A stretch of 64,000 nt of DNA, taken from NCBI RefSeq assembly GCF_030028105.1, contig NC_092378.1, positions 109,481,731-109,545,730 on the forward strand. Reading direction: 5' to 3'. The notes under the pieces were generated by a model. The model was not told the origin of the DNA and searched no databases. It worked only from the letters and a program-made list of their open reading frames with translations. This DNA is from Mobula birostris (taxonomy: Eukaryota). Positions 441 to 63,530 of this stretch are shown in pieces. Each line of letters opens with the position of its first letter. The first letter of the stretch is position 1. Both the position numbers and the translations under genes were made by a program.

Positions 441-3400
441 TTTACCTCAAGAATCCTCTATATTCACTAGAAGGCCTAACTGTCCATTTTATATTTTTCA
501 CTGCTTTGCATTCATTAGCTACTCTCCACCCACCCACCCCCCAACTCCACCTTTTTTTCTTTCTTCCTTTTCAATGTTTTTAGATTTCTATACAGAAGAG
601 TCCAAGAGAATACAGATTATAAAAAAGAAAAAATATAATACCAGATACAGTATATTGAATCACATTAACAAACCTTTTACCCTATATTCATATAGATTAG
701 ATTAATTCGTATTTTAAAGCTGCATTTGAGGAGCCTTAATAACCATGGTTACCTCTTTAAATTAATTTCTTGATCTCTCAAGTCCTGCTGAAGGGTCTCA
801 GCCTGTAATGTCAGCTGTACTCTTTTCATTAGATGCTGCCTGGCCTGCTGAGTTCATCCAGTATTGTGTATGTGTTGCTTGATCTTTACTCCACTGCTAC
901 TAACTCACCATATTTTAACTTATTACTCTGAGTTACATCACCTTTCTTCCATGAACCATGATCTTCAAATCCCATTTCTTTCCTTGATATCCCCACCCTT
1001 ACCTAATCCACAAGCCATGGATGTCAGAGGAAATGCATTGTAGATGAAAGGACTGCAAGAAGAGATGTTTGTTTTCATGTCCCTTGACTGGACAGTGTGT
1101 GTGGTAATAATAGGTCTCAAATGTGACTGCTAACCCAATGAATGCAGCGACAATATGTCCAAATTTTATTGCCGTACAGTACTGAGACACTAATTTTTTT
1201 TTAAAAATGCACTGCATTTTTTTTTGTCTTCCCTGTACCCCACCCCATCCCTCCCCCAGCAAGTCTAATGTTGGTCTCAGCTGTTAATTTAAAAACTGAC
1301 CCACTGCTGTTATTTAATGATAAAATGGCTATGAGAGAAAATCATCCCCTATGAACACATCTCCACTTATATAGTGGATTCAAAGGGAGAAATAGCCCAT
1401 CTTACAAAAATTCACAATATGCTTCATAGCAATACCTCTCAGTGACAAGGAGCTAAACAAAATATCACTGAAATTTCACATCTTACTTTCTGCAGGTTTT
1501 GCAATCTTCCAGACCCAGAAATTAAATTTGTAAATTATTTAAATGTCTAGAATCAGTTATTTATACTTAAAACTGCATCCCAAAGGGAATATTAAATACA
1601 ACTTGCATACAGTTCAAACAATTACATTGTTATACATAAATAGGACAAATGCCTGCACAATTCTCAATGCTGTGGAAATTATGGACAAGTTTTTTAAATC
1701 CAAACATAATTATGGTTTTCATAATCCAACCCCATCTATCACTCCAAGTTAGAGATTAAAAAGTTAGTTTCCAATTCTTGTTTTCAAGATCATTTTTACT
1801 TCACTGTTATGACAATATTGTATCACAACTTTAAGTTACATAAAAAATGTTTAGTTAGTTGTCTTTGGATATCAAAATTTTTACCACTTTCTATTCATAA
1901 CTCACCAATCTGCGAGTCGTTTCTTCAGTGTTTCGTGCTTTGCTTTGCTGTAACTGTAGGTATCAGAAGTTTGAAATTTAGCTTCACAGAAAGCTAAAGC
2001 AAATGGGGATTTAAACAGTGTCACAGCACTAACTACTTCTGGGACAATTCATACCAAGTGAATATTGGTGCAGAGATAAACGGCAGAGAACACCATGCAC
2101 GTTAATTCTTGTACATACCTCTTCCTCATTCTAGCATACCTTCTGATTTCCAAACTGCTGTGGATGTTAAGCATGAATCAATTACAGTCCCCACAGCAAA
2201 CTTCCCTCACCTACCAGTGGTTTACCCCTGTGTTTTTCCTTTCAGGCATCCAGAGGATGCAATCTCTTGGATATCATGGAAACTATGATGGAGGCAAAGA
2301 ACTGCCTCTTATTTCACACTCTCAGTCAACACTATCGGTACAAATACAATATACATTGTAAATCAGAGGTTCCCAATCAGAGACCTACTGACCCCACGGT
2401 TAATGGTAGAGCTCCACAGCATTAAAATAAAAAGTTGAAAACTCCTGCCCTAAATGGATAAATCAGAGGCATGATCTACAGTACTCACTCAAACAACTGC
2501 ACTGCAGCCAAGGCTCACAGAAAGGCGGCTGGTGCAAACCACACTGATTTTCCCTACTGAAATCCGATGGTTGAAGGTATGCAAATATATGCAGCTATAT
2601 AGCTTCCTGTGGACAGGATAGTTCACTGCCACCTCCAGGGTAACATCAAAAATCTTGGTGCTTAATCTCATCCACCATGTTTGCATTCTCGGTATTGCCA
2701 AGGCAAGATTCACTTGAAGTTGTTCTGTTTGTAAACCACCTCCTTTCTCATTAGTGCAGTCTGGCTTAAAGCACTGCAATATAGCAAGTATAATGACTAC
2801 AGGACTAGCAACTTGTTATTCATGGTCACCAACCTTAATTCCTAATGGCTTTTCAAAAGAAATGAGAAAATTGGAGCAGGAGTAGACAACTAGCATTCCC
2901 CACCTCCCCCACCAAGTCATCTCACCATTCAGCATAATCACAGCCAACTCATGTTGGTCTCAGCTTCTCATCCACACCAGCTCCCATAGTCCCAATCTTT
3001 CAACAAGTTATCCATCTTTACCTTAATATCACGAGACTGCACTGAAGAAATTTCTACACACCTCAATTTTAAATGACCGGTCCCTTATATTGTAGCTACA
3101 TCCCCTTATTTGTACCTCTCACTAATGAGAATTTTCAAGTCCCTTGGGATCTCAGACACTTACAGTTTGGATTTAGTCAGCATTTTACCCACTTCACTGC
3201 ACATTCCAGCTTCTGCTGAAGGCTTATAAATATACAAATGGAAAAGTACGTATTTTGTGACTGCGAAAATCTCATAGTTGATGATTATTGATAAGTCACA
3301 AGCAAAAAGTGTGCAAGTGTTGTCACTGGATAGAACCACTCCCCCTGCTAAAACCAGTACTGTATATTTAACTCTGGGGAAAGACAGGACCGTCCCCAAT

Positions 3401-3739
3401 CTGACAAAAAAAGCTCTAGTAGAGTCAGCAGCTCCTGCTTCCCAGTCACCGTCACATTCACACATCTGGAAAACTCTGCAGCTGAAGGAATTAATAAAAG
3501 CTTAATGTTACATTCTGAGAATTTGATGTAAACATCAAAACCCACCTCACCATAAAAGGACACTTAGACACTTGTGACAACCCATGTACAAAGCAGTGTG
3601 TTATGTATATCAATAAGAAATTCTCCATATTTACATCATTAAACTTTTGCTACTAATTAAGGGGGTGGGGGAAGTAGATGGGGTCCAATATTATCTCCTT
3701 GAGCCTGAATTCTGTCAAGATCTGTTTTGTTACTGACCA

Positions 3740-4685
3740 CTCAGAAGAGCTGCCCTTTCATGGTGACCATTTAACTGATCGACTTTAACACCCATTTCTA
3801 TCACTTCCCACACATCTGCTCTCACATCACTCTTTCAACCTTTCCCCAGACAGAATGGAGATAGGTCACCTTTCATCCCACTGGGCTTTGCATCCAGCTT
3901 ATCATCCTTCATCACTTCCATCAGTTCCAACGGGAACTCACCATGAGCCATATCTTCTCCTCTACCCCCTCCCCCCAAATTCTGCTTTCCACAGGAGACT
4001 AGGCAATGTGGGACTCCTTGATCCACTCATCCCTTCCAACCAACCTTTTGCACTTTCCCCAGCAACCTTAACATGTGAGATTTGTACTTTCTCCCTCACC
4101 AGCCAAATATCTAAAAAGCCCTTCCAGATGAGGTGGTGCACCTCCTCCAACATGGTCTTTTGCATTCAGCGCCCATGATGTGCCCCCCCCCACAGCAGCA
4201 AGGTCAAGTGCACACTACACAACTCTTTTGCAGAGCACCTCTACTCCATCCACAATGCCATCTTAAGCTGATGGTGACATCTTATTTCAATTCCACATCC
4301 TATTATTCTCACACTGACCTGTCTATACTCAACTTTCTTCACTGCTACAAAGGCCAAATGCAAATACAAGAACAGTAGCTGACAGCTCAATTGTAGAAAC
4401 AATGGATTTTCTGGTTACCCATTCTCCAAGTTCATTCTACTTCCACCTGTCCACAGTCTCTTTCCCTTTGATCAGCTTCCCTACCCTCCATTACCTACCC
4501 CTCCTGGTTCCATCTGCCAGGCATTCCTCCTTTATCTGGTTCCATCTATCATTTTCCTCTCACTTCTATGTACTGGCTATTTTCTCTCTACTCTCCCTGT
4601 CCTGATGCAAGGTCTCAATCTGAAATGTGACCATCTTTCCACAACCACTGATGTGGTTAACCCAGAGTTCCTCCAGCAGTTTCTT
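3740..4685 (+). mobile_element. Old Penelope-like fragment
   Basis: Degenerate similarity to 42560-43600, including a decayed hammerhead motif near 4600. Confidence 0.6.
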
Positions 4686-5068
4686 TTCCTCTCCATAGAC
4701 CATCATTCAGTGTCTTAATCACTGCTTTGTTTTCTCCCCGTCATTTTTCCCTTTCTCTCCAACAGTTTAAATTTTTGTTTTGATAAACAGCAATATCAAT
4801 GCACTTAATTGTCGTCGTCTTGTACGACCCAGAAAGTTAATGAAACTGGTCTATCATGTACTACAGCAGCTCGGAAGGGAAGAAGGACAGAGATTTTTTG
4901 AGTCCTTTTCCAGGAAGGACCCAACTGGTAACTGGTTCACAGGAAAAATCAATAGTGTGAACATAGAAAAATAAAAAAAGCATGTTTAATCTTTACAGTA
5001 CATTAAGTTAATCCCAATTAGTAAAAAAAACCCAGCATCTTAAACTTGTGCTATTAATACTACCTTAC

Positions 5069-5152
5069 TTTTTCAAAGTCCTTCTTCATTGTTTCCTGGT
5101 TACTACTCAAGAGATTAATTGCATTCATCAATTCTTGTAGTGATCCCATTGC
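5069..5152 (-). CDS. C16orf96: C16orf96-like coding exon 2 (AMGSLQELMNAINLLSSNQETMKKDFEK)
   Basis: Minus strand TTTTTCAG| acceptor, 84 nt in frame with exon 1, |GTAAGG donor; coiled-coil-like peptide resembling the segment that follows exon 1 in this family. The gene presumably continues toward or beyond the left edge. Confidence 0.7.
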
Positions 5153-5577
5153 CTGAAAAAGTGCACACTAGTGATTATTTTGCAGGGAAAAAGACACGTC
5201 ACAGCAACACTGCCAATTATCATTGTACTCTGAAAATGCCAGTTGGAATAACCATGAGCTTGAATTCTAAAAATAAAAGCAAATTTTTAAAGTAGCATTT
5301 CCAAAGCATTCAGAAAAAACTGCACTATACAGCAACCAAGATTCTTAAGTTTTCAAAATAATAATCATTGTTGGAATCACTCAAAGGTCAAGCAGCTTTT
5401 GTGGGAAGATTTAATATTTCAGGTCCGAGACTTCATTTAAAAACTAGAAAAAAAGGAAAGAATATTGAATAGTTTAAGCTGCAGGGAGAGTGCAGGGTAG
5501 ATGGAGAAAATTAAGGAAGTATCTCTGACAGAACATGGCTGTGGTTTCTGTGGAAGAAACTTGTTTATGAAGTTCAA

Positions 5578-6392
5578 ACACGAGAAAATATGCAGATGCT
5601 GGAAATCAAAGCAACAAGCACAAAATGTTAAAGGAACTAGCAGGCCAGGCAGCATCTATGGGAAAACAGTAAACAGTCAACATTTCGGGCCAAGATTCTT
5701 CACCTGGGCTGGAAGAAAAAGATAAGTCAGTAAGGAGGGGAGGGATAAGCACAAGATAGTAGGTGAAAGGTGAAACCTGGAGAGAGGGAGGGGTAAAGTG
5801 AAGAGCTGGGAAGTCAATTGGTGAAACAGATAAAGGGCTTAAGAAGGGGGAATCTGATAGGGGAGGACAGAAGGCCATGGAAGAAAGGGAAGGGGAATGA
5901 GCACCAGAGGAATGTGATGGGCAGGTAAGAAGATAAAGTGAGAGGGAAAGCGTAATGGGGAATGGTGAAGGAGAGGTGGGAGTAAAACAATCACCAGAAG
6001 TTCGAAAAATCGATATTCATGCCATCAGATTGGAGCCTACCCAAAGGGAATACAAGGTGCAGGACCTCCAACCAGAGTATGGCTGCTTTGCAGCAGTAGA
6101 GGAGGCAGTGGACAGACATGTCAGAATGGGAAAGGGAAGTCAAATTGAAATGGGTGGCCACCGGGAGATCCTACTTCTTCTGGTGGATGGAGCATAGATG
6201 CTCAGCGAAGTGGTCTTCCAATCCATGTCAGCTCTCACCGATATAGGAGGCTACATTAGAAGCACAGATACTGTAGATGACCCCAACAAACTCACAGCTG
6301 AAGTGTCGCTTCACCTGCAAGGACTGCTTGCGATCCTGAATGGTAGTGAGGGAGGTGGGGCAAGGGCAGGTGTGGCACTTGTTCAGCTTATC
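5578..6392 (-). mobile_element. Penelope-like 3' fragment (degenerate GIY-YIG + pseudo-LTR)
   Basis: Clear similarity to the 3' ends of the better-preserved PLE copies in this window. Confidence 0.75.
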
Positions 6393-6625
6393 TGATTTGG
6401 CAAGTTAACAAGGCTGATAGCGAGAGAGAACACAGGAACATAAAATCTGTCAAATGCAAAGCTCTACAAAATGCTCAGTAAACAAGTTTGTGCCAACAGA
6501 GAAGCACTGGCCAGTACTGATAACAAGGAGAGCAAGTTATAAGAGGTTATTAAATGCAGTATTGAATCCAGAAGGTTGTAATATAGAAGGGAAGATAAGA
6601 AGCTGTTCATTATCTTACAGTCAGT

Positions 6626-9600
6626 CATAGAAAGGTTCAGCACAGAAACAAGCCCTTTGACCATCTAGTCAGTACCAAACCACTTAAGCTGCCTACTCCC
6701 ATTGACCTGCACTGGAACCATAGCCTTCCATATCCCTACCATCCATATACTGTCCAAACTTCTCTTAAGTGTTAAAATTGAGTTCATATACACCACTTGC
6801 GTGGCAGCTCGTTCCACACTCTCATGACTCTGAGTGAAGTAGCATTTCTTGGTCCCCTTAAACTGGTCACCTTTCACCCTTAATCCATGACCTCTGGTTG
6901 TAGACCCACGCAACCTCAGTGGAAAAACCCAGCTTGCATTTACCCAATCTATACCTTTTAATTTTGTATATCTTTATCAAATCTCCCCTCGTTCTTCTCC
7001 TTTAAAGAATCAAGTCTTAACCTATTCAATCTTCCCTTACAATTCAGGTCCTCCAGACCCAGTGCAGCCTTTTAAATTTTCTGTACTCTTTCAAATTTAT
7101 TTACGTCTTTGCTGCGGGAAGGTGAACCAAAACAATACTCCAAATTAGGACTCAATGTCTGACACACTTCAATGTAACATCCCATCTCCTGTATTCAGTA
7201 CATTGATTTATGAAGGCCAATGAGCCAAAAACTTTAATCTTATCTGTGACACCACTTTCAAGAAATTGTATTCTGTATTCCCAGATCCTTCTACCACACT
7301 CCTCAGTGCCCTACTGAAGTGCAAATCCCTCACACTTGTCTGCATTAAATTTCATCTGCCATTTTGCAGCCCATATTTCCAGCTGGTCCAGATCCCAGAA
7401 GCCACGATAGCCTTCCTCGCTGTTCACTACACCCTCAATCTTGATGTCACCTGCAAGTTTGCTGATCCAGTTAACTACATCATCCAAATCACTGATATAG
7501 ATGACAACAACAACCAATCCAGCACAGATCTGTAACTCTTGCTTCGGCTAGCAGCTTCATATAGGGGATGATAGCCCCCACAGCCCAGCCAAACGTAAGA
7601 AATCTCATTTGGGTGGATGCTGCGCAATGTGACCTGTTACAAATCAGTACCATGAAATAACAAACAGTACACAATATGCAATTAAACAATTGAAATTTAT
7701 AATTCTTAATTTGACTATATGGTTAGCAAAGAAAACAAATAAAAAGGGCCCATTCTCATGAAACAGTCTAATTCGCAACGTTGGAGCTCACTGATAAGGC
7801 CATTCGTCCACCATCGACCTCCTCCGATTATCACTGACCTTCGGCCCCTCACTCCAAGTCCACTCCATCTGGCGGTCTACCAACTCTCTCCATTCGCGCC
7901 TTCTTTCCCCGGCAAAAGACCGCAAATTCCCGGCTCCCAAACACACAAGAATGAACAACATCCCACTCATTGGCCAGCATGCTCCATTATCTCTAGTCAT
8001 AACCCAAGTATTACTGCGACAGAGAAACCATTACCTTAGCAGTGGAAAATTACAGAGAAGCCATTACATTAGCAGTGAAACCTTACAGCGTGTACAGATC
8101 CCTGAGGCACTCCACTAGTCATAGACCTCCAGTCCTCAAAGCAACCATCTACTACCACTCTCTGGCTTCTCCCACAAAGCCAATGTTAATCTAATATACT
8201 ACCTCATCTTGAACACCAAGTGACTGAGCCTTCCTGACCAACCTCCCATGTGGGACCCTGTCAAGCACCTGGCTAAAGTCCATACAGACAACATTCACTG
8301 CCTTGTCTTCATCAACTTTCCTGGTCATTTCCTTGAATCCTTGAATCAGTCCATATCTAATCCTAATACTTCTATACACAGCCCTTTAGAATACCTTCCA
8401 ATAGTTTTCCCACAACTGATGTCAGATCACTGGCCTATAATTTCCTGGTTTAGTTTCAGACCCTTTCTTAAGCAGCAGAACAACATTGATGATCCTCCAA
8501 TGCTCTGGTACCTCACTTGATGCCAAGGATGATTAAAATATTTCTGCTATGCCCCAGCAATTTCTGCACTAGCCTCCTGCAGGGTCCAAGGGAACATCTG
8601 TCAGGCCCTGGGGATCTATCCACCCTAATTTACCTCAGGACAGCAAACACCTCCTCCTCTGTAATCTGTATAGGGTCCATGAAGTTGATGCCACTTCATC
8701 CAACTTCTATAGACCGTGTCTCCTGAGTAATTACAGAAGCAAAAATAAAAAAAACCATCTAAGATCTCTCCCACCTCTTTCGGCTCCACACACAGATTAC
8801 TATTCTGATCTTCTAGAAGATTAATATTATCCCTTTCAATCCTTTTGCTCAGTATCTGTAGAATCCCTTGGATTTTCCTTTCACCTTGTTTGCTGGGGCA
8901 ACCTCATGCCTTCTTTGAGCTCTCCTGATTACTTTAAACGTTCTCCTGCATTTCTTGTACTCCACAAGCACCCCATTTATACCGATCTGCCTATACCTGC
9001 TATGCACCTTTTTTGCCTCAACCATGCCTCAATAGCTCTTGAAAACCAAGGTTTCCTACACCTGGTATCTTTACCTTTTATATTGGTGCTCTTAAAATTT
9101 CATTTTCAAAGGCCTCCCAGTTACCAAGTGCATCTTTGCCCGAAAATATCTAGATCCTTTCTGATAGCATAAAAATTGCCTTTTCTCCAGTTCAGAATCT
9201 CATCCTGAGGACCAGACCTATCTTTCTGTATATCTACTTTGAAACTAATGGCAGTGTGATCGGTAATGCAAAGTATTCCCTTTCACTAGCTTCTCTCACC
9301 TGTCCTGACTCACTCCCAAACATCAGATCAAGTATTGCACACTCTCACACTGGAACTTCTATGTACTGATTAAGGAAACTTACCTGAACACATTTGACAA
9401 ACTCGATCCCATCTAGTCCTTTTACAGTATGGGAGTCCCAGTTAATATGTGGAAGGTTAAAAATCACCTACTATAACAACCTTGTTTCTTGCAAGAGTCT
9501 GCGATCTCTTTACAAATTTGTTCCTCTAAATCCCTTGGATTGTTGGATGGTCTGTAATGTATGTAATGTAGTCCCATTAACATGGTCATACCTTTCTTAT

Positions 9601-11050: not shown

Positions 11051-11589
11051 AATCTCCACTCTAACTCTGACCACTCCAATGACAGCCACTCTGCTTGCCC
11101 CACCTTACTTTAATATAATCTTGACAATCAATCCCAAACACTACTTGACCACTGCGCAAAGCACCAAACTGCTGCAAGCACTGCCTTTTCTACTCAAGTC
11201 AGTGAACCTGAGCGAACTACTCCTTCTCAGGCTTCTGATCTCTGATTTGGTGCTGCTCGAGGTCTTGTTATAACAGCGATGAGACCACAGAACTGAAATG
11301 CCAGTGATGAAGCAAGATGCTGAATTGAAGTGGACGACAAAAGGAAATTCAGTGTCTCTGGTGCAGACTGAAAACAAATGCTGCACAAAGTTGTCATCTA
11401 ATCTGTGTGGGTTTCTCCAATGTAGAAGAGATCACATCAGCACTGAATGCAATACACTAGATCACAAGAAGAGCAGGTGAACGGTTGCTTCTCCTGTGTG
11501 ACTGTTGTGTCGCTGGATGGTGAAAAAGTGAAAGAGTGATTGGTTGGAAAGCATCATGAGAAGGAGTTATTGAAGAAAAAGGATTAGCA

Positions 11590-11945: not shown

Positions 11946-13086
11946 GCAAGTTTTGTGAAGATAGCAGAAATTGCAAAGATGATCTGTCCAAAGCAGGAGG
12001 TTGATGAGGTAGGAAGTGGGAATTCTATTGCTCCATCTAGGAGAGGATGCGAGATCAGGGGTTGGGAAATGATATGTGATCAGGGCTTTTATAACTGTAG
12101 TACTGACAGATGATTAAGGACAAAGGAAGACAGCTCCAAAGCACCCGTTTAGCAAGTGTCGTAAGAGCCGACATAGAAGAGACAGAACAGAAAAAAATAT
12201 TAGGGAGTGGAATCCTTTCAGGAAGCTGGAAAGAATGAAGTATATCTAAAACAAGCATGGGCATGTTACGGGCAGAACCTATTCCCACAGATCGGGAAGA
12301 CGACATCAGGGTGCAAACTGGCGGCAAAAGTAATGAAGGGGAAACAAAAAAAAAAGACAGGCACTTGCAAGGTTCCAGAAAACACAGGTGGAGTTGTGGA
12401 AGTTGTTGTTTAACATGAGAATGAGGTCAGCCAGGCAAATCAATGTGTTTGTGGCAGGGAAATGGTCGGGCCACTGTTCAAGTGAGAAGCAGTGCACCGG
12501 GACAATCCTAGTGCATGATCAGGGTGTAAAACAATTGTACATCCATCGCAGATACATTTTCCCTCTGAACACGATCACAAAACCCATCTCCACAATCACC
12601 AAGCTAACCTTTTCTAATATAGCCTTCTTTTGCCTGAAAATCCCATTGAGATTTATTTTAAAATAATTTAGCCTACAAGTTCAAATGCAACTGTACTCTA
12701 GGAAAACAAGAGCCACAGGGATAGACATTGAAATGTCTGTGGAAGATTCACTGGAAATATTATTTTGGATTACACAACATAACTAAAGATACAGATCAAA
12801 AGATGAACTATTACAGCACATTACTTTTTTGGGATCCCCAAACATTAGGAGCTAATGACTTGCCTGCATTTAATCCCATTGGATTTTCCAGTGTATTCCA
12901 ATATCCCTTAATATAATTTAGACTGCAACTCCTTTGACGACTGTAGTGAATGCTTCCCCTACATATTTATGTATATTGATTGGCAAGTGCACTACATTCC
13001 AAATCCAATTAACCCATGGATAGGATGTTAAATTTATCGGTTTTATTAAATAACAGCACCTAATGAACGTTCAGACCGTATCCCAC

Positions 13087-13563
13087 CTTAAGCACTCCTT
13101 CCTCGTTTGCTTCCACCTTTTTTTTGACTTGCATGAGTTGCCACATTTCCTTCACTGGCCCTCCACTGCTGCTGGATAGAGAGCTTTTCCTGCCGCCCGT
13201 CTCCTCTTGGCTGCGGGCCATGAGTTCTGGAACACTGGGCAATTGTCCCAAGATGCCCATCGCGTTTTGGAGCTTTGCAACTTTTTCCTCCAGTTGGTGG
13301 AAGAGAGAAACAGACCTTCCATTCTCCTTGGGTGGACCTTCTTCTGAAGCAGGGGCTTCTTCTGCAGGAACCTCGCCCTTAGAGCTCTTGGGTTTGATAA
13401 ACTCAACCTCTACTTCTTCCACCGTCTTCTGCACATCTCCAAGTTGGAGATGTTCCAAAATACCATGCAATAGTGCATGCAGCGCGTTGAAGTTACACAC
13501 CCCCACCTCGGGAGTGCCGATGGCCAAATTCACAAGCTCCTTTAAAGTAAAAGTGTGCGCCAT
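13087..13563 (-). CDS. C16orf96: C16orf96/QRICH2-family protein, coding exon 1 (159 codons)
   Basis: MAHTFTLKELVNLAIGTPEVGVCNFNALHALLHGILEHL... matches the N-terminal motif shared by C16orf96 and QRICH2; PVKEMWQLMQVKKKVEANEEG motif near the end; donor AAG|GTGGGA at 13086, phase 0; head-to-head with CDIP1 as for human C16orf96. The symbol rests on synteny plus the LLHGILEH motif. Confidence 0.8.
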
Positions 13564-13599
13564 CGCAATCTCTCTAGTAATGCATAAATGTCGCCTTTA

Positions 13600-13830: not shown

Positions 13831-15164
13831 AATGGCGTTGCAGCTACGGCTTTATGTCATGATCTGCATTGTTCTGACTATAACTCAAAATACTCAGCAG
13901 ATGTTTTTATTTTATATGCATGTATTTTCTCTATGCACCGAGTGGTGGCGTTTGCTGCGTAATTTAACCAACGAGAGGATTCTGAAAGCGACAGGTCCGG
14001 TTTAAATACGCCGAAGGATCTTTCCTTATCTTTTGGCAGCCTGTGCATTTTAACCGATGACCAAAAACAAAACACACACAAACTGGAGTTGCTGGAAATC
14101 TAAAACACAGACAGAAAACTGTTCGGATGCACTCAACAAGTCAAGCAACTGATCATTTGAACGGAGGACTGATCAATGTTTCAGAAACCTTTATTTCTCT
14201 CTCCCACTGATGCTGCCTGAGCTGCTGAACACTTCCAGTGATTTCTGTTCTTTATTTCATGCCCTTGCACGGGATCAGTATTGGCACGAAATTTCTGAAA
14301 AATTTTGCACGAGGTTGCACTTTTCTCGAGTCAGTTCTCATTCAGCTTGTAGCCGTTATCTTAGGCTGGACTCCCAGATTCCACAAATACTTCCACCTCT
14401 GTTGAGCAGGACTTTCAAATCTACAAACAATTTTAACTTTGTTAATCATTGAAAGTATTTTTATCTACTCAGTAAAAAACGTTTATGATAATAAACAGCT
14501 CTGTCAAATTTCTTAACCTTCACTGCTTTGAGAGAAGAACCCATGTTTTCAAATCTCTTGGCACAACTGGCAGTCCTTGGAACTTTTTTCATCTCTTCTA
14601 ACTTTTTGAAAACTTTGGCATTTTTTGTAAGGTATGGCACACAGGTTGGAAGTAGTACTCTAGCTGAGACCAAACCCACTGTTTTAGTTCAACATAACAT
14701 TTTAATTGTGTGTTCTTTTCTGCTGTTCATAAAGTCATATATTCTATTTACATTTTAATAGGCTTCTCAGCTGATCTATCACCTCAAATAAAATTGAGCA
14801 ACTCAACCCTTGTCTCATTGCTCCTAGACTTCGTTTGAATGAAAAGAAATTTCTCTTATTTGAAAAATCCCGGTCCTGCTGAAGGTCTCAGCCCAAAATG
14901 TCAACTGTACTCTATTTTCCATAGATGCTGCCTGGCCTGCTGGGTTCCTTCAGCATTTTGAGCATGTTGCTTGGATTTCCAGCAACTGCAGATTTTCTCT
15001 TGTTTGCCTTCGGTCCTCAAAAATGTTCATTTTTGAACTGAATTTTAATATATTTACTTTTCAATATTTTGAAGTCTAATTTTGATAGAAGCACTGTGCT
15101 TTCTAAAAATAAGTGTGAATATTGCCATCTCTAGTTATTTCCAAACCACAGAAAGCTTAAAACG

Positions 15165-18440: not shown

Positions 18441-18730
18441 TTTCAAGTTTATACTTTGAAGTAGTGAAATAGTTTTCCTTTCACTCCTGGATATTTTTGG
18501 CATCTCTAAGCCTGAATGCTTGAAGCCTCAGTGAGCAAAACAGTTCTGAATTCTCTTACTGCTTATTTCTAGCCAACTATCAGTGACAAAAAATATCAAA
18601 TTTTAAAAAAATGTTTTTTGAACACAAATACGTGCTATTTAAAAACTGTTTGCTCTAAGTACAGGGTCGTGTCTAACAACCACATTTGTGCACGAGACTG
18701 ATGCTAGTTAGAAATTGTTCGGCAGTTTTC

Positions 18731-19563
18731 TCAGCAACACACACAAAATGCTGGAGCAACTCAGCAGGCCAGGTAACATCCATGGAAAAGAGTACAGTCA
18801 ATGTTTCAGGCCAAAACCCTTCATCAGTCCCAGAGAGGAAGGGAAAGAGTCAGAGTAAGAAGGTGGGAGGAGGGGAGGAAGAAGTACAAGATGACAGGTG
18901 ATGGGAGAAACCAGGGGAGAGGGAGGGGTGACATAAGGGGGAGGAGCACCAGGGGGAGGTGATGGGCAAGGAAGGAGAAAATGTGAGAGAGGGAAAGAGG
19001 AATGGGTGATGGTGAAGAAGGGGGGGATTGCAATTACTGGAAGTTTGAGAAATCGCTGTTCATGCCACCAGGTTGGAGGCTACCTGGACAGAATATAAGC
19101 AGTTACTCCAACAAACTGAGTGTGGCTTCATCCTGGCAGTTGAGGAGGCTATGGACTAACATGCTGGAAAGCGAATGGGAAGTAGAACTGAAATGGGTGG
19201 CCACTGGGAGATTCCACTTTTTGTGGCAGATGGAGTGAACGTGTTCGGTGAAGTTGTCTCCCAATCTATGTCTGTCCTCACCAATATACAGGAGGCTACA
19301 CCAGGAGCACTGCATACAGCAGATGATACCTCCCTCACTACCAGCAAAGGGAACACGAGTCACACCTTCCCCTACACCTCCTCCCTCATTACCATTCACG
19401 GGAATAAGTGCCACATCTGCCCCTACGCCTCCTCCTGAAGAACTGCCTCAGTCCGAAATGTCAACTGTTTATTCATTTGCATAGATACTGCATGATCTGC
19501 TGAGTTCCTCCGGCATTTTGAGTGTGTTGCTCTGGATTTCCAGCATCTGCAGACTTTCTTGTG
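18731..19563 (-). mobile_element. Penelope-like fragment, minus copy followed by a short plus-strand copy (inverted arrangement)
   Basis: ORF 19103-19414 contains LLYIGE..RLGD..VATHF; pseudo-LTR termini point outward at both ends. Confidence 0.75.
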
Positions 19564-41442: not shown

Positions 41443-43631
41443 TCACAACACGCCGGAGGAACTCAGCAGGTCGGGGCAGCATCCGTGGAAACGATCAGTC
41501 AACGTTTCGGGCCGGAACCCTTCGTCAGGACTGAAGAGGGAAGGGGCAGAGGCCCTATAAAGAAGGTGGGGGGAAGGTGGGAAGGAGAAGGTTGGTAGGT
41601 TCCAGGTGAAAAACCAGTAAGGGGAAAGATCAAGGGGTGGGGGAGGGGAGGCAGGGAGGTGATAGGCAGGAAAGGTGAAGAAAGAATAGGGGAAAACACA
41701 ATGGGTAGTAGGAGGAGGTGGAACCATGAGGGAGGTGATAGGCAGCTAGGGGAGGGGGCAGAGTGAAATAGGGATAGGGGAAGAGAGTGGGAGGGAATTA
41801 CCGGTAGTTGGAGAATTCTGTGTTCATACCAAGGGGCTGGAGACTACCTAGGCGGTATATGAGGTGTTGCTCCTCCAACCTGAGTTTAGCCTCAGCATGG
41901 CAGTAGAGGAGGTCATGTATGGACATATTCGAATAGGAATGGGAAGCAGAGTTGAAGTAGGTGGCAACCGGGAGATCCTGTCTGTTGTGGCGGACAGATC
42001 GGAGGTGCTCGACGAAGCGGTCCCCCAATCTGCATTGGGTTTCACCGATGTAGAGGAGGCCGCACCGGATGCAATAGATATGCACACTCGCATGGATCTC
42101 AGCTATGCCTGCCTATTTGTTGGTTATGTGGAACAGTCTGTGCTCCAAACCTATTCTGGTACTGCTCCCCAACTTTTCCTTTGCTACATTGATGACTACA
42201 TTGGTGCTGTTTCCTGCACCCATGCTGAGCTCATCAATTTCATCGACTTTACTTCAAACTTCCACCCAGCCCTCAAGTTCACTTGGTCTATCTCGGATGC
42301 TTCTTCCCCCTTCTTGATCTCTCGGTCTCCATCTCTGGAGACAGACTGTCCACTGACATCTTCTACAAGCCTACTGACTCTCATAACTACCTCGACTATA
42401 CCTCTTCCCACCCCACCACAGGCAAAAATGCCATTCCCTATTCCCAGTTCCTCTGTCTCCGCTGCATCTGCTCCCAGGATGAGGCTTTCCGTTCCAGGAC
42501 ATCTCAAATGTCCTCTTTCTTTAAGGATCGTGGTTTCCCTTCTGTCGTCATCAATGATGCCCTCACCGGCATCTTCTCCATTTCCCGCACTTCAGCCCTC
42601 ACCCCATCCTCCTGCCACCACACCAGGGACAGAGTTCCCCTTGTCCTCATCTACCACCCCACCAGCCTCTGGATCCAGCACATTATCCTCAGCAACTTCC
42701 GCCACCTTCAACAGGACCCCACCACTAAGCACATCTTTCCCTCTCCACCCCTCTCCGCTTTCCGCAGGGATCGGTCCCTCCGCGACTCCCTGATCCACAC
42801 GTCCCTCCCCACGGATCACCCACCCGGCACTTATCCCTTTAAGCGTAAGTGCTACACCTGTCCCCACACCTCCTCCCTTGCCATCATTCAGGGCCCCAAA
42901 CAGTCCTTTCAGGTGAGGCAACACTTCACTTGTGAGTCTGTTGGGGTCATCTATTGCATCCGGTACTCCCGGTGCGGCGGCCTCTACATCGAGGAAACCC
43001 GATGCAGATTGGGAGACCGCTTCATCGAACACCTCCGCTCCGTCCGCCAAAACAGACAGGATCTCCCAGTAGCCACCCACTTCAACTCTGCTTCCCACTC
43101 CCATTCAGATATGTCCATACATGGCCTCCTCTACTGCCATGATGAGGCTAAACTCAGGTTGGAGGAGCAACACCTCATATACCGTCTAGGTCGTCTCCAG
43201 CCCCTTGGTATGAACATAGAATTCTCCAACTTCCAGTAATTCCCTCCCACTCCCTTCCCCTATCCCTATTTCATTCTGCCCCCTCCCCCAGCTGCCTATC
43301 ACCTCCCTCATGGTTCCGCCTCCTTCCACTACCCATTGTGTTTTCCCCTATTCCTTCTTCACCTTTCATGCCTATCACCTCCCTGCTTCCCCTCCCCCAC
43401 CCCTTGATCTTTCCCCTTACTGGTTTTTCACCTGGAACCTACCAGCCTTCTCCTTCCCACCCTCCCTCCACCTTCTTTATAGGGCCTCTGCCCCTTCCCT
43501 CTTCAGAACTGACGAAGGATTCCGGCCCGAAATGTTGACTGATCGTTTCCACGGATGCTGCCCGACCTACTGAGTTCCTCCAGCGTGTTGAGTGTTGCTT
43601 TGACCTCAGCATCTGCAGAGTATTTTGTGTT
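41443..43631 (+). mobile_element. Penelope-like element (RT C-terminus + GIY-YIG endonuclease) with an inverted 5' copy of its 3' end
   Basis: RT motif YIDD, DIFYKPTDSHNYL, and VIYCI..LYIEE/GET GIY-YIG motif; left arm 41443-42079 is the reverse complement of about 42949-43592; 14-bp TSD TCCAGTTGTGGCAG at 41429-41442 and 43632-43645. Confidence 0.92.
41495..41534 (-). ncRNA. Minimal type-I hammerhead ribozyme motif (core intact, GUU site)
   Basis: Minus strand TCAGTC-CTGACGA-AGGGTTCCGGCCC-GAAAC-GTT-GACTGA; AACGTT palindrome. Confidence 0.72.
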
Positions 43632-46860: not shown

Positions 46861-48699
46861 TTGATCTTAATCTTATCAAAACACTAGAATTACGAATTAC
46901 AAATTCCAAAATGAACACTCTTGTTTTCTCACAATTTACATATTGTTGCTGGACCTAAAGTGCTAGAATTTTATTCCATGAAGATGATCAGATCATTAAT
47001 TTGAAGATTCAAACATTATTGAACAGATTTCATTTTTGCATGTCCCATTAGTTGACCTTATCCTTAAGTTATAAAATATACAAAATTGCTATGGCAATAA
47101 TTTCTCTTTTGTAGTGAATTGCATCAAAAGTGTATTAACTTGATAAGAAATAACAATTACAAAAGTGGAGAGAGCGGAAACTAATTCTGCAGTTTGTAGA
47201 AGTACATCAGACCTTTTGAATTTATTATTATGGGAGCTCAGTGATATTAGGTTGGCCATCATAACCATAGGAAGGCCTGTATAAACTGAACTAAGGAATA
47301 AAGTGGGGCAAAGTATGTACTAAACCCCCAAAGCAATCAGGAGTAGATGGAACAAATTATATATTGGTATATTTGCAAAGTGCAAAAAAAAAGCCTCCAA
47401 TTAGCAACAGTTTGTGAATCAATTATATAAGGTGAGTATTTGTTAAATTCATTTGAAGGAAGCATTAATTTGTATACAGCAAGTTTGGTTCTGGGAAATG
47501 AACTTGACCCTTCATCAGTCTTGGCCCGAAATGTCGACTGTATTTTTTTGCATAGATGCTGCTTGACCTACTGAGTTCCTCCAGCATTTTGTGTGTGTAG
47601 CTGACAACCAATGATATTTTGAAGTTAGTAAAGCAATTGTCCCTTAGTTGTTTGGTGTATTTCACATCCTTCCATATTTTTCTAATCTGTCTCTGGTACC
47701 CACTACTGTGTAAAGGGAAGCTATATTCTAGGTTGTGCAACACATTGTCATGAGGGCCAGGGGAAACACCTCTGGCCACTTTAGCTTGATCTTGTCAAGC
47801 AATTTAGCTAAACCTGCATTTCAGGGCCCCACTTTGTCTTTCAGCTGCCTGGTATGATTGAGAGTGGCAAGGGCAGGTGAAATGATGCTTACACTACAAG
47901 GCTTTCATTAACATGTAACTTTACCTGTAAAGTGAGTACTGCTATCACTTGAGATTTTTTTCAGGAATCCCAAACCAAGGAATAAATTCTCATAATAAAA
48001 ATTAGCAACAGTCCCAGCATCATTTCTGAGTTGGATAAGCTTTTAGCCATGGAGATAACAACGAAGTAACAAGTACATAATCACAATCGGTACATTTGGG
48101 TAACTGCATAAATTCATTTAGAGGTGCACAAATGAACCCTGGGGCAGATACCAGCAGAGTCTTTCAGGATTATGTCTGGCAAATCATACAGTTGCTGCTA
48201 CTTTTCTTGTTATGGTTGTGAACTTCACTTTCAATTATACCCACCATCCTTTATAGTCTTGTATGTAGTGTGCTTCAGTCCACAAAGTCTTTTCAGCCTC
48301 TGACGTGTCATGCTGTAATTTTACTAGTTCATCAAAAAATTTGCTAAGTATTAGCAGCCTGATCATACTGGAGTGCTTATGTAGACATAAAGATCTGCTG
48401 TTGCAAGGAGTCTGCTCATTTGTTCCCTCTAGTTATTTCCTCCTTCCTGTTAGTATGAACCATCAAGTTTATAACAATTGTAGTAAGTAATTGAAAAGTA
48501 AGAAAAGCTTCACAGTTAGTTCACCTTATTTTATCAGAGTTCCAAAGAGGCAAGAAACCCTTTTCAAAAATGTCATAATTGTCCAGTGTCATGTGCTACT
48601 CCCACAGCATAAGAAGATTCAGTGTAAATGTTTACACTGGCGCCAGCTGCAAGGATGCAGGATTTTAAGTTAAAAAAAAATTCAGCTGCTATATGATGT

Positions 48700-51917: not shown

Positions 51918-52015
51918 GGCAGTCCTGACGAAGGGTCTCGGCCTGAAACGTCGACTGCACCTCTTCCCAGAGATGCTGCCTGGCCTGCTGCGTTCACCAG
52001 CAACTTTTATGTGTG
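51918..52015 (+). mobile_element. 98-nt Penelope-derived insertion consisting of hammerhead plus short tail
   Basis: 13-bp TSD ATACTATCTCATT at 51905-51917 and 52016-52028. Confidence 0.85.
51919..51958 (+). ncRNA. Minimal type-I hammerhead ribozyme motif (core intact)
   Basis: GCAGTC-CTGACGA-AGG(GTCTCGG)CCT-GAAAC-GTC-GACTGC: 6-bp stem I, CUGANGA and GAAA core, GUC cleavage triplet, ACGT palindrome in place of a stable stem III. Confidence 0.8.
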
Positions 52016-52099
52016 ATACTATCTCATTATTTGTTTTGCAACTCACAGTAATCATTATGCCTTGCACTGTCCTGCTGCTGCAAAATAAATTTCACGACA

Positions 52100-53371: not shown

Positions 53372-56300
53372 AGAACATAGAACATAGAAAGCCTATGACA
53401 CAATACAGGCACTTCAGCCCAGAAAGTTGTGCCGAACACGTCCCTACCCTAGAAATTACTGGGGTTACCCATAGCTCTCTCTTTTTCTAAGCTCCATGTA
53501 CCTATCCAAAAGTCTCTTAAAAGACCCTACCATATCTGCCTCCACCACCATTGCCGGCAGCCCATTCCGAGCACTCACCACTCTGTGTAAAAAACTTACC
53601 CCTGACATCTCCTCTGTACCTACTCCGAAGCACATTAAACCTGTGCCCTCTTGTGGCAGCCATTTCAGCCCAGGGAAAAAGCCTCTGATTATCCACACGA
53701 TTAATGCCTCTCATCATCTTATACACCTCTATCAGGTCACCTCTCATCTTCCCTCACTCTAAGGAGAAAAGGCCGAGTTCACTCAACCTGTTTTCATAAG
53801 TCATGCTCCCCAATCCAGGCAACATCCTTGTAAACCTCCTCTGCACCCTTTCTATGGTTTCCACATCCTTCCTGTAGTGAAGTGACCAGTACTGAGCACA
53901 GTCACAGTGGGGTCTGACCAGGGTCGTATATAGCAGCAATATTACCACTCGGCTCCTAAATTCAATCCCATGATTGATGAAGGCCAGTGCACTGTATGCC
54001 TTTTTAACCACAGAGTCAACCTGCACAGCTGCTTTGAGTGTCCCATGGACTCAGACCCCAAGATCCCTCTGATCCTCCACACTACCAAGAGTCTTACCAT
54101 TAATACTATATTCTGTCATCATATTTGACCTAACAAAATGAACCACTTCACACTTACCTGGGTTGAACTCCATCTGCCACTTCTCAGCTCACTTTTGCAT
54201 CCTATCAATGTCCCGCTGTAACCTCTGACAACCCTCCACACTATCCACAACACCCCTAACCTTTGTGTCATCAGCAAACTTACTAACCCATCCCTCCACT
54301 TCCTCATCCAGGTCATTTATAAAAATCACGAAGAGTAACAGTCCCAGAACAGATCCCTGAGGCACACCACTGGTCACTGACCTCCATGCAGAATATGACC
54401 GTCTACAACCACTCTTTGCCTTTTGTGGGCAAGCCAGTTCTGGATCCACAAAGCAATGTCCCCTTGGATCCCATGCCTCCTTACTTTCTCAATGAGCCTT
54501 GCATGGGGTACCTTATCAAATGCCTGACTGAAATCCATATACACATCTATTGCTCTTCCTTCATCAATGTGTTTAGTCACATCCTCAAAAAATTCAATCA
54601 GGCTCATAAGGCACAATCTGCCCTTGACAAAGCCATGCTGACTGTTCCTAATCATATTATACTTCTCCAAATGTTCATAAATCCTGCCTCTTAGGATCTT
54701 CTCCATCAACTTACCAAACACTGAAGTAAGACTTGCTGGTCTATAATTTCCTGGGCTATCCCTACTCCCTTTCTTGAATAAGGGAACAACATCTGAAACC
54801 CTCCAATCCTCCAGAACCTCTCCCATTCCCATTGATGATGCAAAGATCACCAGAGGCTCAGAAATCTCCTCCCTCACCTCCCATAGTAACCTGGGGTACA
54901 TCTCATCCGGTCCCGGCAACTTATCCAACTTGATGCTTTCCAAAAGCTCCAGCACATCCTCTTTGTTAATATCTACATGCTCAAGCTTTTCAGTCCGCTG
55001 CAGGTCATCCCTACAATCACCAAGATCCTTTTCCATAGTGAATACTGAAGTATTCATTAAGTACCTCTGCTATTTCCTCCAGTTCCATACACACTTCCCA
55101 CTGTCACACTTGATAGGTCCTATTCTTTCATGTCTTATCCTCTTGCTCTTCATATTCTTGTAGAACGCCTTGGGGTTTTCCTTAATCCTGCCCGCCAAGG
55201 CCTTCTCATGGCCCCTTCTGGCTCTCCTAATTTCCTTTTTAAGTTCCTTCCTGTTACCCTTATAATCATCTAGATCTCTAACATTACCTAACTCTCTGAA
55301 TCTTTCCTAAACTTTTCTTTTCTTCTTGAATAGATTTACTAGGGGTGATTGATAAGTTCATGGCCCAAGGTAGGAGGAGTCAATTTTAGAAAACCTAGCA
55401 CATTTATTTTTCAACATAGTCCCCTCCTACATTTACACACTTAGTCCAGCGGTCGTGGAGCACATGGATCTTGGACCTGCAGAAAATGCCCACAGCAAGG
55501 GTGATTGATAAGTTTGTGGCCTAAGGTAGAAGGAGATGAGTTATTAACTTCAAACTTTCTGCATAATCACTCAAAGAGTTAAACTGTATATGCACGTAAC
55601 AAGAGCTGTATAACTCATCTCCTTCTACCTTAGGCCACGAACTTATCAATCACACCCGTACTACAGCCTTTGTGCACCATGGTTCCTGTACCCTCCCACA
55701 ACTTCCCTGTCTAATTGGAATGTATCTATGCAGAACTCCACACAAATATCCCCTGAACATTTGCCACATTTTTTTAATACCTTTCCCTGAAAACATCTGT
55801 TCCCAGTTTAAGCTTCCAAGGTCCTGCCTGATAGCCTCATAATTTCCCTCACTCCAATCAAACACTTTTCTAACTTGACTGTTCCTATCTCTCTCCAATG
55901 TTATTGTAAAGGAGATAGAATTATGATCACTATTTCCAAAATGCTCTCCCACTGAGAGATCTGACACCTGACCAGGTTCATTTCCCAATACCAAATTAAG
56001 TACGGTCTCTCCTCTTGTAAGCTAATCTACATATTGTGTCAAGAAACCTTCCTGAACACACCTAACAAATTCCACCCCATCTAAACCCATTGCTCTAGGG
56101 AGGTGCCAATCCATATTTGGGAAATTAAAATCTCCCATCATGACAACTCTGTTATTATTACACCTTTCCAGGATCTGTTTCCCTACCTGCTCCTTAATAT
56201 CCCTGTTACTATTAGGCGGCCTATAAAAAACACCCAGTAGAATTATTGACCCCTTCCTGTTCCACCCACAGACACTCCATAGACAATCCCTCCATGCCAT

Positions 56301-60894: not shown

Positions 60895-61117
60895 CTTCAA
60901 AACATACGAGAAATATAACAAACATCATACAGCATGTAAGCATAGTCTAAATTTGAAGAAGTGAAGGACGAATAAAGCCTCAATCACAAATCAACACTTC
61001 TAATGCAGCATTTTCCCCAAAAAAACTCAATGCTACATATTAAACCCAATAATGGAACTTGGACTAAAGTTTTAACCAATCTGAAATTCACCAATCTCCT
61101 TATTTCCTCTCACCTCC

Positions 61118-61678
61118 CTATACCCGTCTCTATTTCCTGAGGAGACTGAGGTCCTTTAACATCTGCCAGACGATGCTGAGGATGTTCTACGAGTCTGTGG
61201 TGGCCAGTGCTATCATGTTTGCTGTTGTGTGCTGGAGCAGCAGGCTGAGGGTAGCAGACACCAACAGAATTAACAAACTCATTTGTAAGGCCAGTGATGT
61301 TGTGGGGATGGAACTGGGCTCTCTCATGGTGGTGTCTGAAAAGAGGATGCTGTCCAAGTTGCATGCCATCTTGGACAATGTCTCCCATCCACTACATAAT
61401 GTACTGGTTGGGCACAGGAGTACATTCAGCCAGATACTCATTCCACCGAGATGCAACACAGAGCATCATAGGAAGTCATTCCTGCCTGTGGCCATCAAAC
61501 TTTACAACTCCTCCCTTGGAGGGTCAGACACCCTGAGCCAATAGGCTGGTCCTGGACTTATTTCCTGGCATAATTTACATATTACTATTTAACTATTTAT
61601 GGTTTTATTACTATTAATTATTTATGGTGCAACTAACAAATACCAATTTCTCCCGGGATCAATAAAGTATGACTATGA
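61118..61678 (+). mobile_element. Rex1-type LINE 3' end in POLR3K intron 1
   Basis: LRMFYESVVASAIMFAVVCW...HPLH...RKSFLPVAIKLYN; ends with AATAAAG and a TATGAC repeat. Confidence 0.8.
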
Positions 61679-61679
61679 C

Positions 61680-62220: not shown

Positions 62221-62226
62221 CCTTAC

Positions 62227-62337
62227 TTTGCGAGTAATGTTGTGGACATAAGGACAAGTGTTACAGGCGAACCGGTAACACTTCTGTCCCTCTTCTACGA
62301 TCAGGACATTCCCGCACGTCGGACAAAAAAGCAACAT
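62227..62337 (-). CDS. POLR3K: POLR3K (RNA polymerase III subunit RPC10/C11) exon 1
   Basis: MLLFCPTCGNVLIVEEGQKCYRFACNTCPYVHNITRK, N-terminal zinc ribbon; donor AAA|GTAAGG; 111 nt. Confidence 0.97.
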
Positions 62338-62530
62338 TGTCCCGGTGCGCCTCCAAAGTGCATCCTCCGGCGAACCCCGTGTCCGGGTATTAGTTCCGTC
62401 CCATGCTGGCTCACGGCCTGGATTCTCGTCGAACAGATCCGCCGGAGAGGCCTAAAGGTTACACTCGTACCTGGTGCAATGGTGGATATGATTTTAGTCC
62501 ACTGTCACTACTGAGTTTGGAGGTGTGTAG
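62338..62530. promoter_or_regulatory. POLR3K CpG promoter, possibly bidirectional
   Basis: CpG-rich segment upstream of the POLR3K ATG; purine/pyrimidine skew reverses across it. Confidence 0.55.
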
Positions 62531-62774
62531 TTTGTCCTTTGCAAATGGTGAATGACGGGAGGTCAGATGAAGTGGACGGAAGGACTGACGGGGTTAAGAA
62601 TATAGGCAAAAAAATTCTGGGAGCGGTTGGGGATGGAGAAGGGGAAAAGTAAGGGCTGGGCTGTGAGGGGAGGGTAAAGGTCGTATGGGGTGAGAAGGAG
62701 AGCCGGGCATAGAAGAACAAAGGTGGAGGAGATTTGGGGTGGGCAGAAGAAAACTGAGGATTGGATAGAGGACA

Positions 62775-63530
62775 AACAAGAGAAAGTCTGCAGATGCTGG
62801 CAACAATCCAAGCAACACACACAAAATGCTGGAGGAACTCAGCAGGCCAGGCAACATCTAATGAAAAGAGTAAACAGTCGACGTTTCGGGCTGAGACCCT
62901 TCATCAGGACTGGGGGAAAAAAAAGATGAGAATTTAGAGCAAGAAGGTGGAGGGAGGGGAGGAAGAAGTACAAGGTGATAGGTGAAACCGGGGGAGGGTG
63001 AAGTAAAGAGCTGGGAAGCTGATAGGTGAAAGAGATAAAGAGCTGGAGAAGGGGGATTCTGATAGGAAAGGGTAGGTGACCATGGAAGAAAGGGAGGACG
63101 TTGTTGGAGGAAGAATAGATGGAATCATGGGAGTTTGGGATTAGCTGGGCGAATGTGGATTAGAAATTGTTGCGTGACTAATGATGGAGGTGAATGCAGG
63201 AAGGCTAGGAAGTGCAGAGTGAGCGGAATGGATGGATGGAATGTGAGGTAGTCTATGTTTAGTCTCACCAATGTGGAGTAGGCTGTGCTGGATACAGTAG
63301 GTGACCCCGAAAAGAGTCACAGGTGAAGTTTTGCCTCACCTGGATGGACTTTTTGGGGCCCTGAATGATGGTAAGGGAGGAGGTAAAGGAACAGGTGTAG
63401 CACTTGTCCCACTTGTAGGGATAGGTGCCTGGAGGGAAATCAGTGAGGAGGGACACATAGACAAAGGAGTCATGGGGAGAGCAATCCATGCAGAAAGTGG
63501 AGAGTATTGGGTGGGGTGGGGGGATATGTG
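62775..63530 (-). mobile_element. Penelope-like fragments with intact hammerhead motif
   Basis: Pseudo-LTR at 62775-63100 and PPGTYP..KCYTC..QGPKKS segment at 63265-63530. Confidence 0.75.
62875..62912 (-). ncRNA. Minimal type-I hammerhead ribozyme motif (core intact)
   Basis: Minus strand CAGTC-CTGATGA-AGGGTCTCAGCCC-GAAAC-GTC-GACTG. Confidence 0.8.

Follow-up and report, generated by a model that had tools for sequence, protein, structure and literature searches.

Minimal hammerhead ribozymes (min-HHRs) reside in the pseudo-long terminal repeats (pLTRs) of metazoan Penelope-like elements (PLEs), as described by Cervera and De la Pena in 2014 (PMC4209133). A min-HHR monomer stayed uncut in a published test, and dimers cut weakly (PMC4209133). 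The hammerhead of the PLE from the anole Anolis carolinensis cut only with its protein present and was dispensable for insertion in vitro, where catalytic mutants left insertion unchanged; RNA sequencing (RNA-seq) read ends were absent at its cut site (PMC11167929). Neptune and Poseidon PLEs are reported in five vertebrate classes (10.64898/2026.07.22.740005), and a CX2-5CxxC linker between reverse transcriptase (RT) and endonuclease marks the Neptune and Nematis clades (PMC8557442). Here, we analyzed a 64,000-nt stretch of the ray Mobula birostris (NC_092378.1, positions 109,481,731 to 109,545,730; hereafter the window, with coordinates counted from its first nucleotide) that carries 16 dispersed hammerhead motifs. 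The motifs are very probably min-HHRs in the terminal repeat of a Neptune-type PLE, represented here by dead, shortened remnants whose decay is likely unopposed by selection, the ribozyme itself likely being used only by active full-length elements.

An ungapped scan with the 51920 copy as query recovered all 16 motifs at 23–38 of 38 matches, whereas shuffled sequences gave 0.25 hits scoring at least 23 and 0.05 scoring at least 24. Nine lie on the plus strand and seven on the minus strand, at most 4 nt from the positions given earlier; the largest shift moves the 36331 copy to a start at 36327. The recurrence at 16 sites listed in the original prediction is thus confirmed, strands included, well above the shuffle background. 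Directly 3' of every motif lie 60–100 nt of common pLTR sequence; PLE 3'-untranslated region (3'-UTR) or open reading frame (ORF) sequence adjoins 11 of the 16, and the remaining five are short pLTR pieces, in agreement with the earlier placement in the 3' pLTR of PLEs or in isolated bits of it. A profile built from the window copies added four weak or partial pieces (14185+, 14184−, 27207− and 5433−). Independent insertions number fewer than 16, with the copies at 41533− and 43504+, and likewise those at 18832− and 19430+, looking like the inverted arms of one insertion per pair. The proposed figure of about one ribozyme per 4 kb holds for the 16 motifs present, but these are not 16 independent insertions and are mostly decayed. 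An Rfam covariance-model scan of the window returned no hammerhead family at E ≤ 1, a miss that may reflect models built with helix III expected.

Read off the copies, the motif has the anatomy CAGUC / CUGAYGA / A / GGGU-loop-GCCC / GAAA-CG-UH / GACUG, and the majority sequence of the 16 copies presents the core CUGANGA...GAAA...UH in type-I order. The extra A between positions 9 and 10.1 is kept in 15/16 copies. An ACGU palindrome (15.2–16.2), unbroken in 4/16 copies, takes the place of helix III; 11 of the other 12 copies read TG or CA at this site. Because this anatomy shows every min-HHR trait of PMC4209133, we class the motifs as minimal type-I hammerheads, and anatomy, pLTR position and ORF relatives agree with the earlier identification of a PLE-borne hammerhead core. 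The consensus proposed at that time, CAGTC-CTGAYGA...GAAAC-GTC-GACTG, is real, but few copies fit it. Specifically, CUGANGA is retained in 10/16 copies, CUGANGA with GAAA and UH in 7/16, these plus both stems in 4/16, and the whole set including the palindrome in 3/16. The first of the three complete copies, at 62875–62912 (−), combines a 5-bp stem I, CUGAUGA, the extra A, a 4-bp stem II and GAAA-CG-UC; it belongs to the main subfamily and lies in a 5'-truncated PLE whose tail ends near 62774. The second, at 51920–51957 (+), has a G10.1-U11.1 wobble and heads a ~96-nt pLTR-only insertion without a tail. The third, at 41496–41533 (−), has a GUU triplet, a UUCCGG stem II top and no tail, and occupies the inverted 5' arm (about 41440–42068) of the large insertion shared with the 43504 copy.

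The host element is recognizable from two 5'-truncated, frameshifted PLE ORFs, one at 42069–43239 (+) with the RT end, thumb region, linker and GIY-YIG endonuclease, and one at 30319–31372 (−) with an intact C-x4-C-x2-C linker and GIY-YIG domain. In these two longest copies, the motif lies on the ORF sense strand, 264 and 300 nt past the stop. The former, at 43504–43541 (+), is decayed (stem I 3/5, stem II 3/4, palindrome lost) and sits in the main arm of the insertion shared with 41533, followed by a divergent tail; the latter, at 29981–30018 (−), is near-complete, its sole defect being a CpG-type G16.2→A, and its tail ends near 29884. The ORF segment at 42229–43239 (+) matches 39 proteins among 1,590 longer candidates, most of them annotated as RT and several also as GIY-YIG, the best being a Chiloscyllium protein with 66% identity over half the query. 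The segment at 30319–30915 matches GIY-YIG, and the C-x4-C-x2-C linker precedes the domain both here and in its homologues. Homologues carry PF00078 and PF01541, and in the window fragments, with their frames disrupted, the YIDD region and the GIY-YIG motif can still be recognized; a Pfam search of the window ORF pieces gave no PLE domain at E ≤ 0.01 and GIY-YIG for one piece at E ≤ 0.05. The element appears to be a Neptune-type PLE, a label assigned from the Cys linker, which Nematis shares. A Poseidon assignment was dropped given this linker between RT and endonuclease.

PLE pieces cover ~15% of the window (approximate intervals), and every PLE copy is 5'-truncated and frameshifted. The 3' ends of copies fall at two sites ~35 nt apart; a tail extension is present in 8/16 copies by score and in divergent form at 43504, and seven copies go without it. 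In each inverted pair, the tail occurs on one arm only. The one-armed tail, the inverted arms and the truncation together fit the published PLE layout (PMC8557442). At 19329–19435 (+), 51 nt of the sequence encoding the Cys linker are duplicated in tandem and run straight into the hammerhead, which implies a deletion of ~600 nt in this inverted arm. In each copy, an ATG ~55–60 nt behind stem I opens a frame reading MLPGLL... or MLPDLL... (for example 14924–15005, +), which runs through the tail in two subfamilies and meets an early stop in the 30018 type; it is possibly the start of the element's ORF.

The remaining copies are decayed, broken or rearranged. Within PLE fragments lie a broken, divergent copy at 4597–4633 (+; older fragment, about 3866–4730), a broken one at 5674–5711 (−; core CAGGUGA; fragment 5569–6390, tail present), a decayed one at 18795–18832 (−; core kept, stem I 3/5, palindrome lost; fragment 18730–19357, no tail) with its decayed, inverted and internally deleted neighbor at 19430–19467 (+; tail present), and broken ones at 26358–26395 (+; fragment 25905–26491, 92% identical to the 30018 copy) and 36327–36364 (+; A15.1→G; fragment 35941–36430 with an inverted piece at 35619–35925). 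Another broken copy, at 33908–33945 (−; G12→A), is accompanied by ~150 nt of 3'-UTR plus a tail. Broken copies in short pLTR-only settings are found at 780–817 (+; A6→C, A13→U), at 14871–14907 (+; A6→C, G12→A; with a tail) and at 23158–23195 (−; GAAA lost), whose 5' end is ambiguous, 2 to ~28 nt before stem I. In the rearranged copy at 47506–47540 (+), nucleotides 47506–47518 are the reverse complement of CUGAUGAAGGGUC and the remainder follows in the normal direction. This 13-nt 5' inversion has a 2-nt overlap at its junction, and the 35619–35925/35941–36430 arrangement resembles a larger case; 5' inversions with junction overlap are of the kind produced by twin priming in L1. Three sites absent from the original prediction complete the set: a pair of pLTR pieces from a divergent subfamily, arranged head to head at 14070–14250, each beginning near GAAAC and neither with a full motif, an old degenerate min-HHR with a pLTR remnant at 27124–27207 (−), and a weaker one at 5379–5433 (−).

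Substitutions are concentrated at CpG sites, with 42/127 (33%) changed over all 16 copies, compared with 12/154 (7.8%) in the non-CpG core and 63/533 (11.8%) in a 34-nt flank. The palindrome dinucleotide reads TG in eight copies, CG in four, CA in three and GG in one, the stem II loop dinucleotide reads CA in seven, TG in five and CG in four, and the CpG observed/expected ratio of the window is 0.28. TG and CA are the products of methyl-CpG decay. Because the loop and palindrome changes are of this kind, the difference between TCTCAG and TCTCGG loops looks like CpG decay and TCTCAG need not define a subfamily. TTCCGG is confined to a single insertion, where both arms carry it. The earlier division into several subfamilies by loop is therefore weakened on both counts, although a true TCTCAG subfamily is possible. 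In the main subfamily (eight copies), the core, for which excess conservation over the flanks had been anticipated, is changed at 7/74 sites (9.5%) versus 21/271 (7.7%) in the flank (p = 0.63). With 3/16 copies complete and no sign of core protection, the motif density reflects dead retroelement ends rather than ribozymes, and most window copies are likely inactive fossils.

The sequencing runs bear on whether the dispersed copies are instead working ribozymes that cut host transcripts genome-wide, through trans dimers of repeat RNAs or with host proteins. The motif family is abundant: 150,699 of 21.8 million contigs in run X1, and 169,390 of 29.4 million in run X5, fall on a 601-nt stretch, and depth summed over the motif is ~2.4–2.9 × 10^5 times the flank depth, which is not a copy number. 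A total of at least 10^5 related motif sequences per genome is compatible with these contigs, though this is again not a count, and the very large genome-wide population proposed earlier stands as regards abundance; the intact share is a minority. In favor of a working population, 3/16 window copies are complete, ~150,000 contigs of one DNA run map to the stretch, and the stretch is also present in two runs (X9 and X12) taken as RNA by guess only, which say nothing firm on expression. Across four runs at 80% likeness or higher, A replaces G12, the general base of the motif, in 17% and 18% of the depth of the DNA runs and in 22% and 25% of that of the two presumed RNA runs, and thus the intact base is not enriched in the latter. 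The absence of excess core conservation in the main subfamily points the same way.

Predicted folds also speak against such activity. Intact monomers are predicted to fold as a rod, with the core base-paired to CGUC at the cut site, at −12.6 to −12.9 kcal/mol versus −8.6 to −10.5 kcal/mol for the open form, such that a single motif without helix III would adopt an inactive structure. The ACGU palindrome could pair two copies in a predicted double-hammerhead fold of −14.7 to −19.9 kcal/mol, but this is 9–19 kcal/mol less stable than the best, inactive co-fold. We found no close co-oriented pair of intact copies in the window, the only co-oriented intact pair being 21,379 nt apart. The suggestion that a palindromic stem III permits dimeric cleavage accordingly keeps its palindrome, present in the consensus, but meets a sole intact co-oriented pair 21.4 kb apart and weak cutting of published dimers (PMC4209133). 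With the monomer of that study uncut and RNA-seq ends absent at the anole cut site (PMC11167929), we regard a genome-wide population of working ribozymes as highly improbable.

Where insertions begin is informative about their template. We counted 15 insertion units, omitting 19430 as an internally deleted arm. Four of the 15 end within ~5 nt of the start of stem I: 51920 (−2), 780 (−3), 14871 (~−3) and the inverted piece of the 47506 copy, which ends at C3; 23195 is a possible, ambiguous fifth. The 51920 insertion begins 2 nt upstream of stem I and is bounded by a 13-bp target-site duplication at 51905 and 52016, and the 780 insertion begins 3 nt upstream with an 8-bp duplication at 769 and 878. 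Under a uniform null, chosen post hoc, the probability of 4/15 is 0.01–0.0004 over 200–500 nt and 0.096 over 100 nt. Inversion joints with one end at 62907–62913, the stem I border, are present in all four runs, and an inverted copy in the related locus L052 also begins at stem I; loose contig ends at 62913, mostly another subfamily's 3'-UTR, were left uncounted as truncations. The idea that copies start at the cleavage site was rejected, with 0/15 units doing so. Starts at the 5' border of the motif, and none at the cut site, suggest that uncut RNA is the template for insertion. Alternatively, the pile-up at stem I could come from an RT stop or a template switch at the hairpin. A pyrimidine tract and CAG before stem I, considered as a splice acceptor in comparison with Drosophila Penelope, were set aside, as the listed joints lend no support; among these joints, a recurrent skip of 62913–62996 has non-GT-AG ends and is seen in DNA runs.

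A tentative extension of the uncut-template reading, and the simplest account of the pile-up though short of an even chance, is that the short insertions are strong-stop complementary DNAs (cDNAs) from the upstream pLTR. On an uncut transcript, reverse transcription would start ~95–135 nt behind the first hammerhead and run off the RNA 5' end, located 0–5 nt upstream of stem I. Fossil footprints of this kind would number 10^4–10^5 in ray genomes and map the PLE start site; they would also show the ribozyme to be silent in retrotransposition and constitute the largest known genomic hammerhead family. At 51918–51919, two extra G lie between the target-site duplication and stem I. Non-templated G can arise from copying an RNA cap, and two letters in one copy prove nothing.

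The same short copies could instead form a separate non-autonomous, SINE-like (short interspersed nuclear element) or retrozyme family that has its own masters and depends on the PLE protein for mobility. Indeed, four or five units consist of the pLTR alone and begin no more than 5 nt from stem I, two of them with clear target-site duplications, and non-LTR retrozymes derived from PLE pLTRs are reported in one chondrichthyan (10.64898/2026.07.22.740005). The 780 and 14871 copies also have A6→C (CUGCUGA) in common. Their source may have gone on spreading although its ribozyme was dead, but chance could also explain the shared change, as could copying from the similar CCUGCUGAG immediately downstream. 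The short copies, however, share subfamilies with ORF-bearing ones, 51920 being 96% identical to the 30018 pLTR, and the window has no tandem repeats of the unit, the defining trait of retrozymes (10.64898/2026.07.22.740005). A separate family consequently appears distinctly unlikely, and we favor short products of the PLE itself.

Comparison with related elements suggests that the motif matters in active lineages. We compared 86 related PLE loci (the best 80 of 326 in metagenome contigs and 6/6 in genome contigs), of which 55, with at least 400 nt past the stop, were scanned for the motif. With a relaxed descriptor (3-bp stem I), a threshold set after a strict one had given 0/55, a sense motif was found within 700 nt of the stop in 12/55 loci; 11 of these 12 sit 87–104 nt past the stop, one antisense motif was found, and shuffles gave a mean of 0.035 and a maximum of 1. 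The common motif of the closest related loci matches the Acropora digitifera Neptune motif in the supplement of PMC4209133. We aligned the three intact window copies with eight locus motifs hand-picked from about 20; across these 11 rows, the catalytic core, the extra A and a single base of stem II never vary, and 7/9 stem pairs vary on both sides. The covariation score was reached by 0/500 shuffles, and slid controls gave at most 0.16 versus 0.63. Thus, between species, unlike within the window, conservation of core over flank favors the motif, and an invariant core with stems covarying between lineages supports, without proving, a genuine selected structure in active elements. In the apparently full-length PLE L013:74–3490, the open frame passes through the 5' hammerhead at 97–134, so the ribozyme overlaps coding sequence. 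Six eukaryote-type PLE loci (L081–L086) lie within bacterial metagenome-assembled genome records and are probably host DNA contamination; L086 has a coral-type min-HHR. Pattern scans for the pLTR flank gave no match in viral contigs and none in metagenome contigs, and a protein-based scan of viral contigs gave no relative.

Selection on the motif need not mean selection on cleavage. It could be kept as a protein-binding, promoter or splice-linked pLTR structure, with self-cleavage no part of the cycle and the hammerhead perhaps a passenger. The unchanged insertion in vitro of anole catalytic mutants (PMC11167929), the spread of Naiad PLEs without canonical hammerheads (PMC8557442) and the lack of any window copy starting at the cut site are compatible with this. 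Nevertheless, it is the catalytic core and the cut-site U that stay unchanged from lineage to lineage, and the stems covary, as selection on catalysis predicts; the anole motif also cuts when its protein is present (PMC11167929). A passenger role therefore looks unlikely, and we retain a ribozyme used by the active element.

The following sequence of events would account for these observations. An active tandem element would produce RNA with two pLTRs, and the element protein would start reverse transcription inside that RNA, ~95 or 135 nt behind the hammerhead, by analogy with the anole element (PMC11167929). The two start sites would yield copies without or with a tail. Since the motif lies in the first 135 nt copied, nearly every insertion would include a hammerhead, and cDNA beginning just behind it would explain the motif density. 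For a cut after GUC, the motif would have to be joined by a second copy or by the element's protein, and such cleavage would probably trim or circularize multimeric RNA late in the cycle. Selection on the core in the active lineage would probably be for such protein- or dimer-assisted trimming, and inserted copies would then decay, CpG sites first.

Several observations weigh against parts of this scheme. Across the full set of copies, the core has changed a little less than the flank (7.8% vs 11.8%, p = 0.19), and with 16 copies the core-versus-flank comparison is low in power. Among the related loci, the strict descriptor (stem I of at least 4 bp) passes 0/55 downstream, and 43/55 lack a motif even under the relaxed one. 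The covariation alignment is hand-picked from only about four lineages, and its two outer stem I pairs are unpaired in 6–7 of 11 rows. Neither a full-length element nor a 5' pLTR lies in the window, which leaves the tandem template hypothetical, and the mechanism is borrowed from a Poseidon-clade element.

Beyond the hammerhead copies, the window contains an old PLE endonuclease fragment at 11315–11496 (−), in which no pLTR was detected, and other long interspersed nuclear element (LINE) fragments at 34842–35372 (−), 54374–55069 (−) and 61068–61544 (+), with two RVT_1 matches and one ALKBH8_N match in Pfam. A first coding exon of a C16orf96-like/glutamine-rich protein 2-like gene lies at 13060–13596 (−), with its ATG near 13565 and a likely donor near 13085. 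It is 89% identical to the Hypanus sabinus C16orf96-like protein and 81% to the Narcine one, which places the window in a batoid genome; a PDB search with this exon gave no match. The 14070–14250 and 14871 PLE pieces lie 0.5–1.4 kb upstream of it.

The pLTR-hammerhead arrangement has been known since 2014 (PMC4209133); what is new here is the host lineage, new or little described, and the very high abundance. In the literature searched, with few subscription papers within reach, we found no paper that takes the PLE hammerheads of rays or sharks as its subject. The main text of a shark and ray genome preprint contains none of the words 'Penelope', 'PLE' and 'ribozyme' (10.1101/2025.06.08.657570), and supplement file 2 of PMC4209133 has no shark, skate, Callorhinchus or Leucoraja entry, file 1 lying outside this check and possibly bearing on it. 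A genome with 10^5 or more copies is a resource for statistics on insertion starts versus the cut site, on any avoidance of intact copies in sense orientation within introns, and on the continued spread of subfamilies whose ribozyme is dead.

Compared with the min-HHRs of PMC4209133, the window motifs share the type-I topology without helix III, the extra nucleotide between 9 and 10.1, the G10.1-C11.1 pair, the palindromic 15.2–16.2 and the short helix I, and they too are mostly solitary in truncated PLEs, with pairs on opposite strands. They differ from several fish families in that study in having a stem II of 4 bp rather than 7–8 bp, and their abundance would be 1–2 orders above the 4,000–9,000 motifs of coelacanth and Xenopus, those being strict-descriptor counts and the ray figure no count. 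Relative to animal non-LTR retrozymes (10.64898/2026.07.22.740005), which are likewise non-coding, carry a type-I hammerhead, derive from PLE pLTRs and are reported in one chondrichthyan, the window copies are dispersed and mostly broken monomers rather than tandem units with a complete motif each. As in PAc, the Poseidon element of Anolis carolinensis (Frangieh et al. 2024, PMC11167929), two end points behind the hammerhead give the tail, ends fall ~100–135 nt into the pLTR-ORF junction, and the template is apparently uncut RNA; PAc belongs to another clade, and its ORF starts at stem II, whereas a candidate ATG of the window element lies 55–60 nt behind stem I. The layout also resembles that of endonuclease-positive Neptune-clade PLEs (PMC8557442). 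Although the window has no full-length copy and no (TA)n targeting is evident at its insertion sites, it matches these elements in the order of RT and C-terminal GIY-YIG, the CX2-5CxxC linker, the 5' truncation, the adjacent inverted copy, the optional 30–40 bp tail on one end and the hammerhead in the pLTR.

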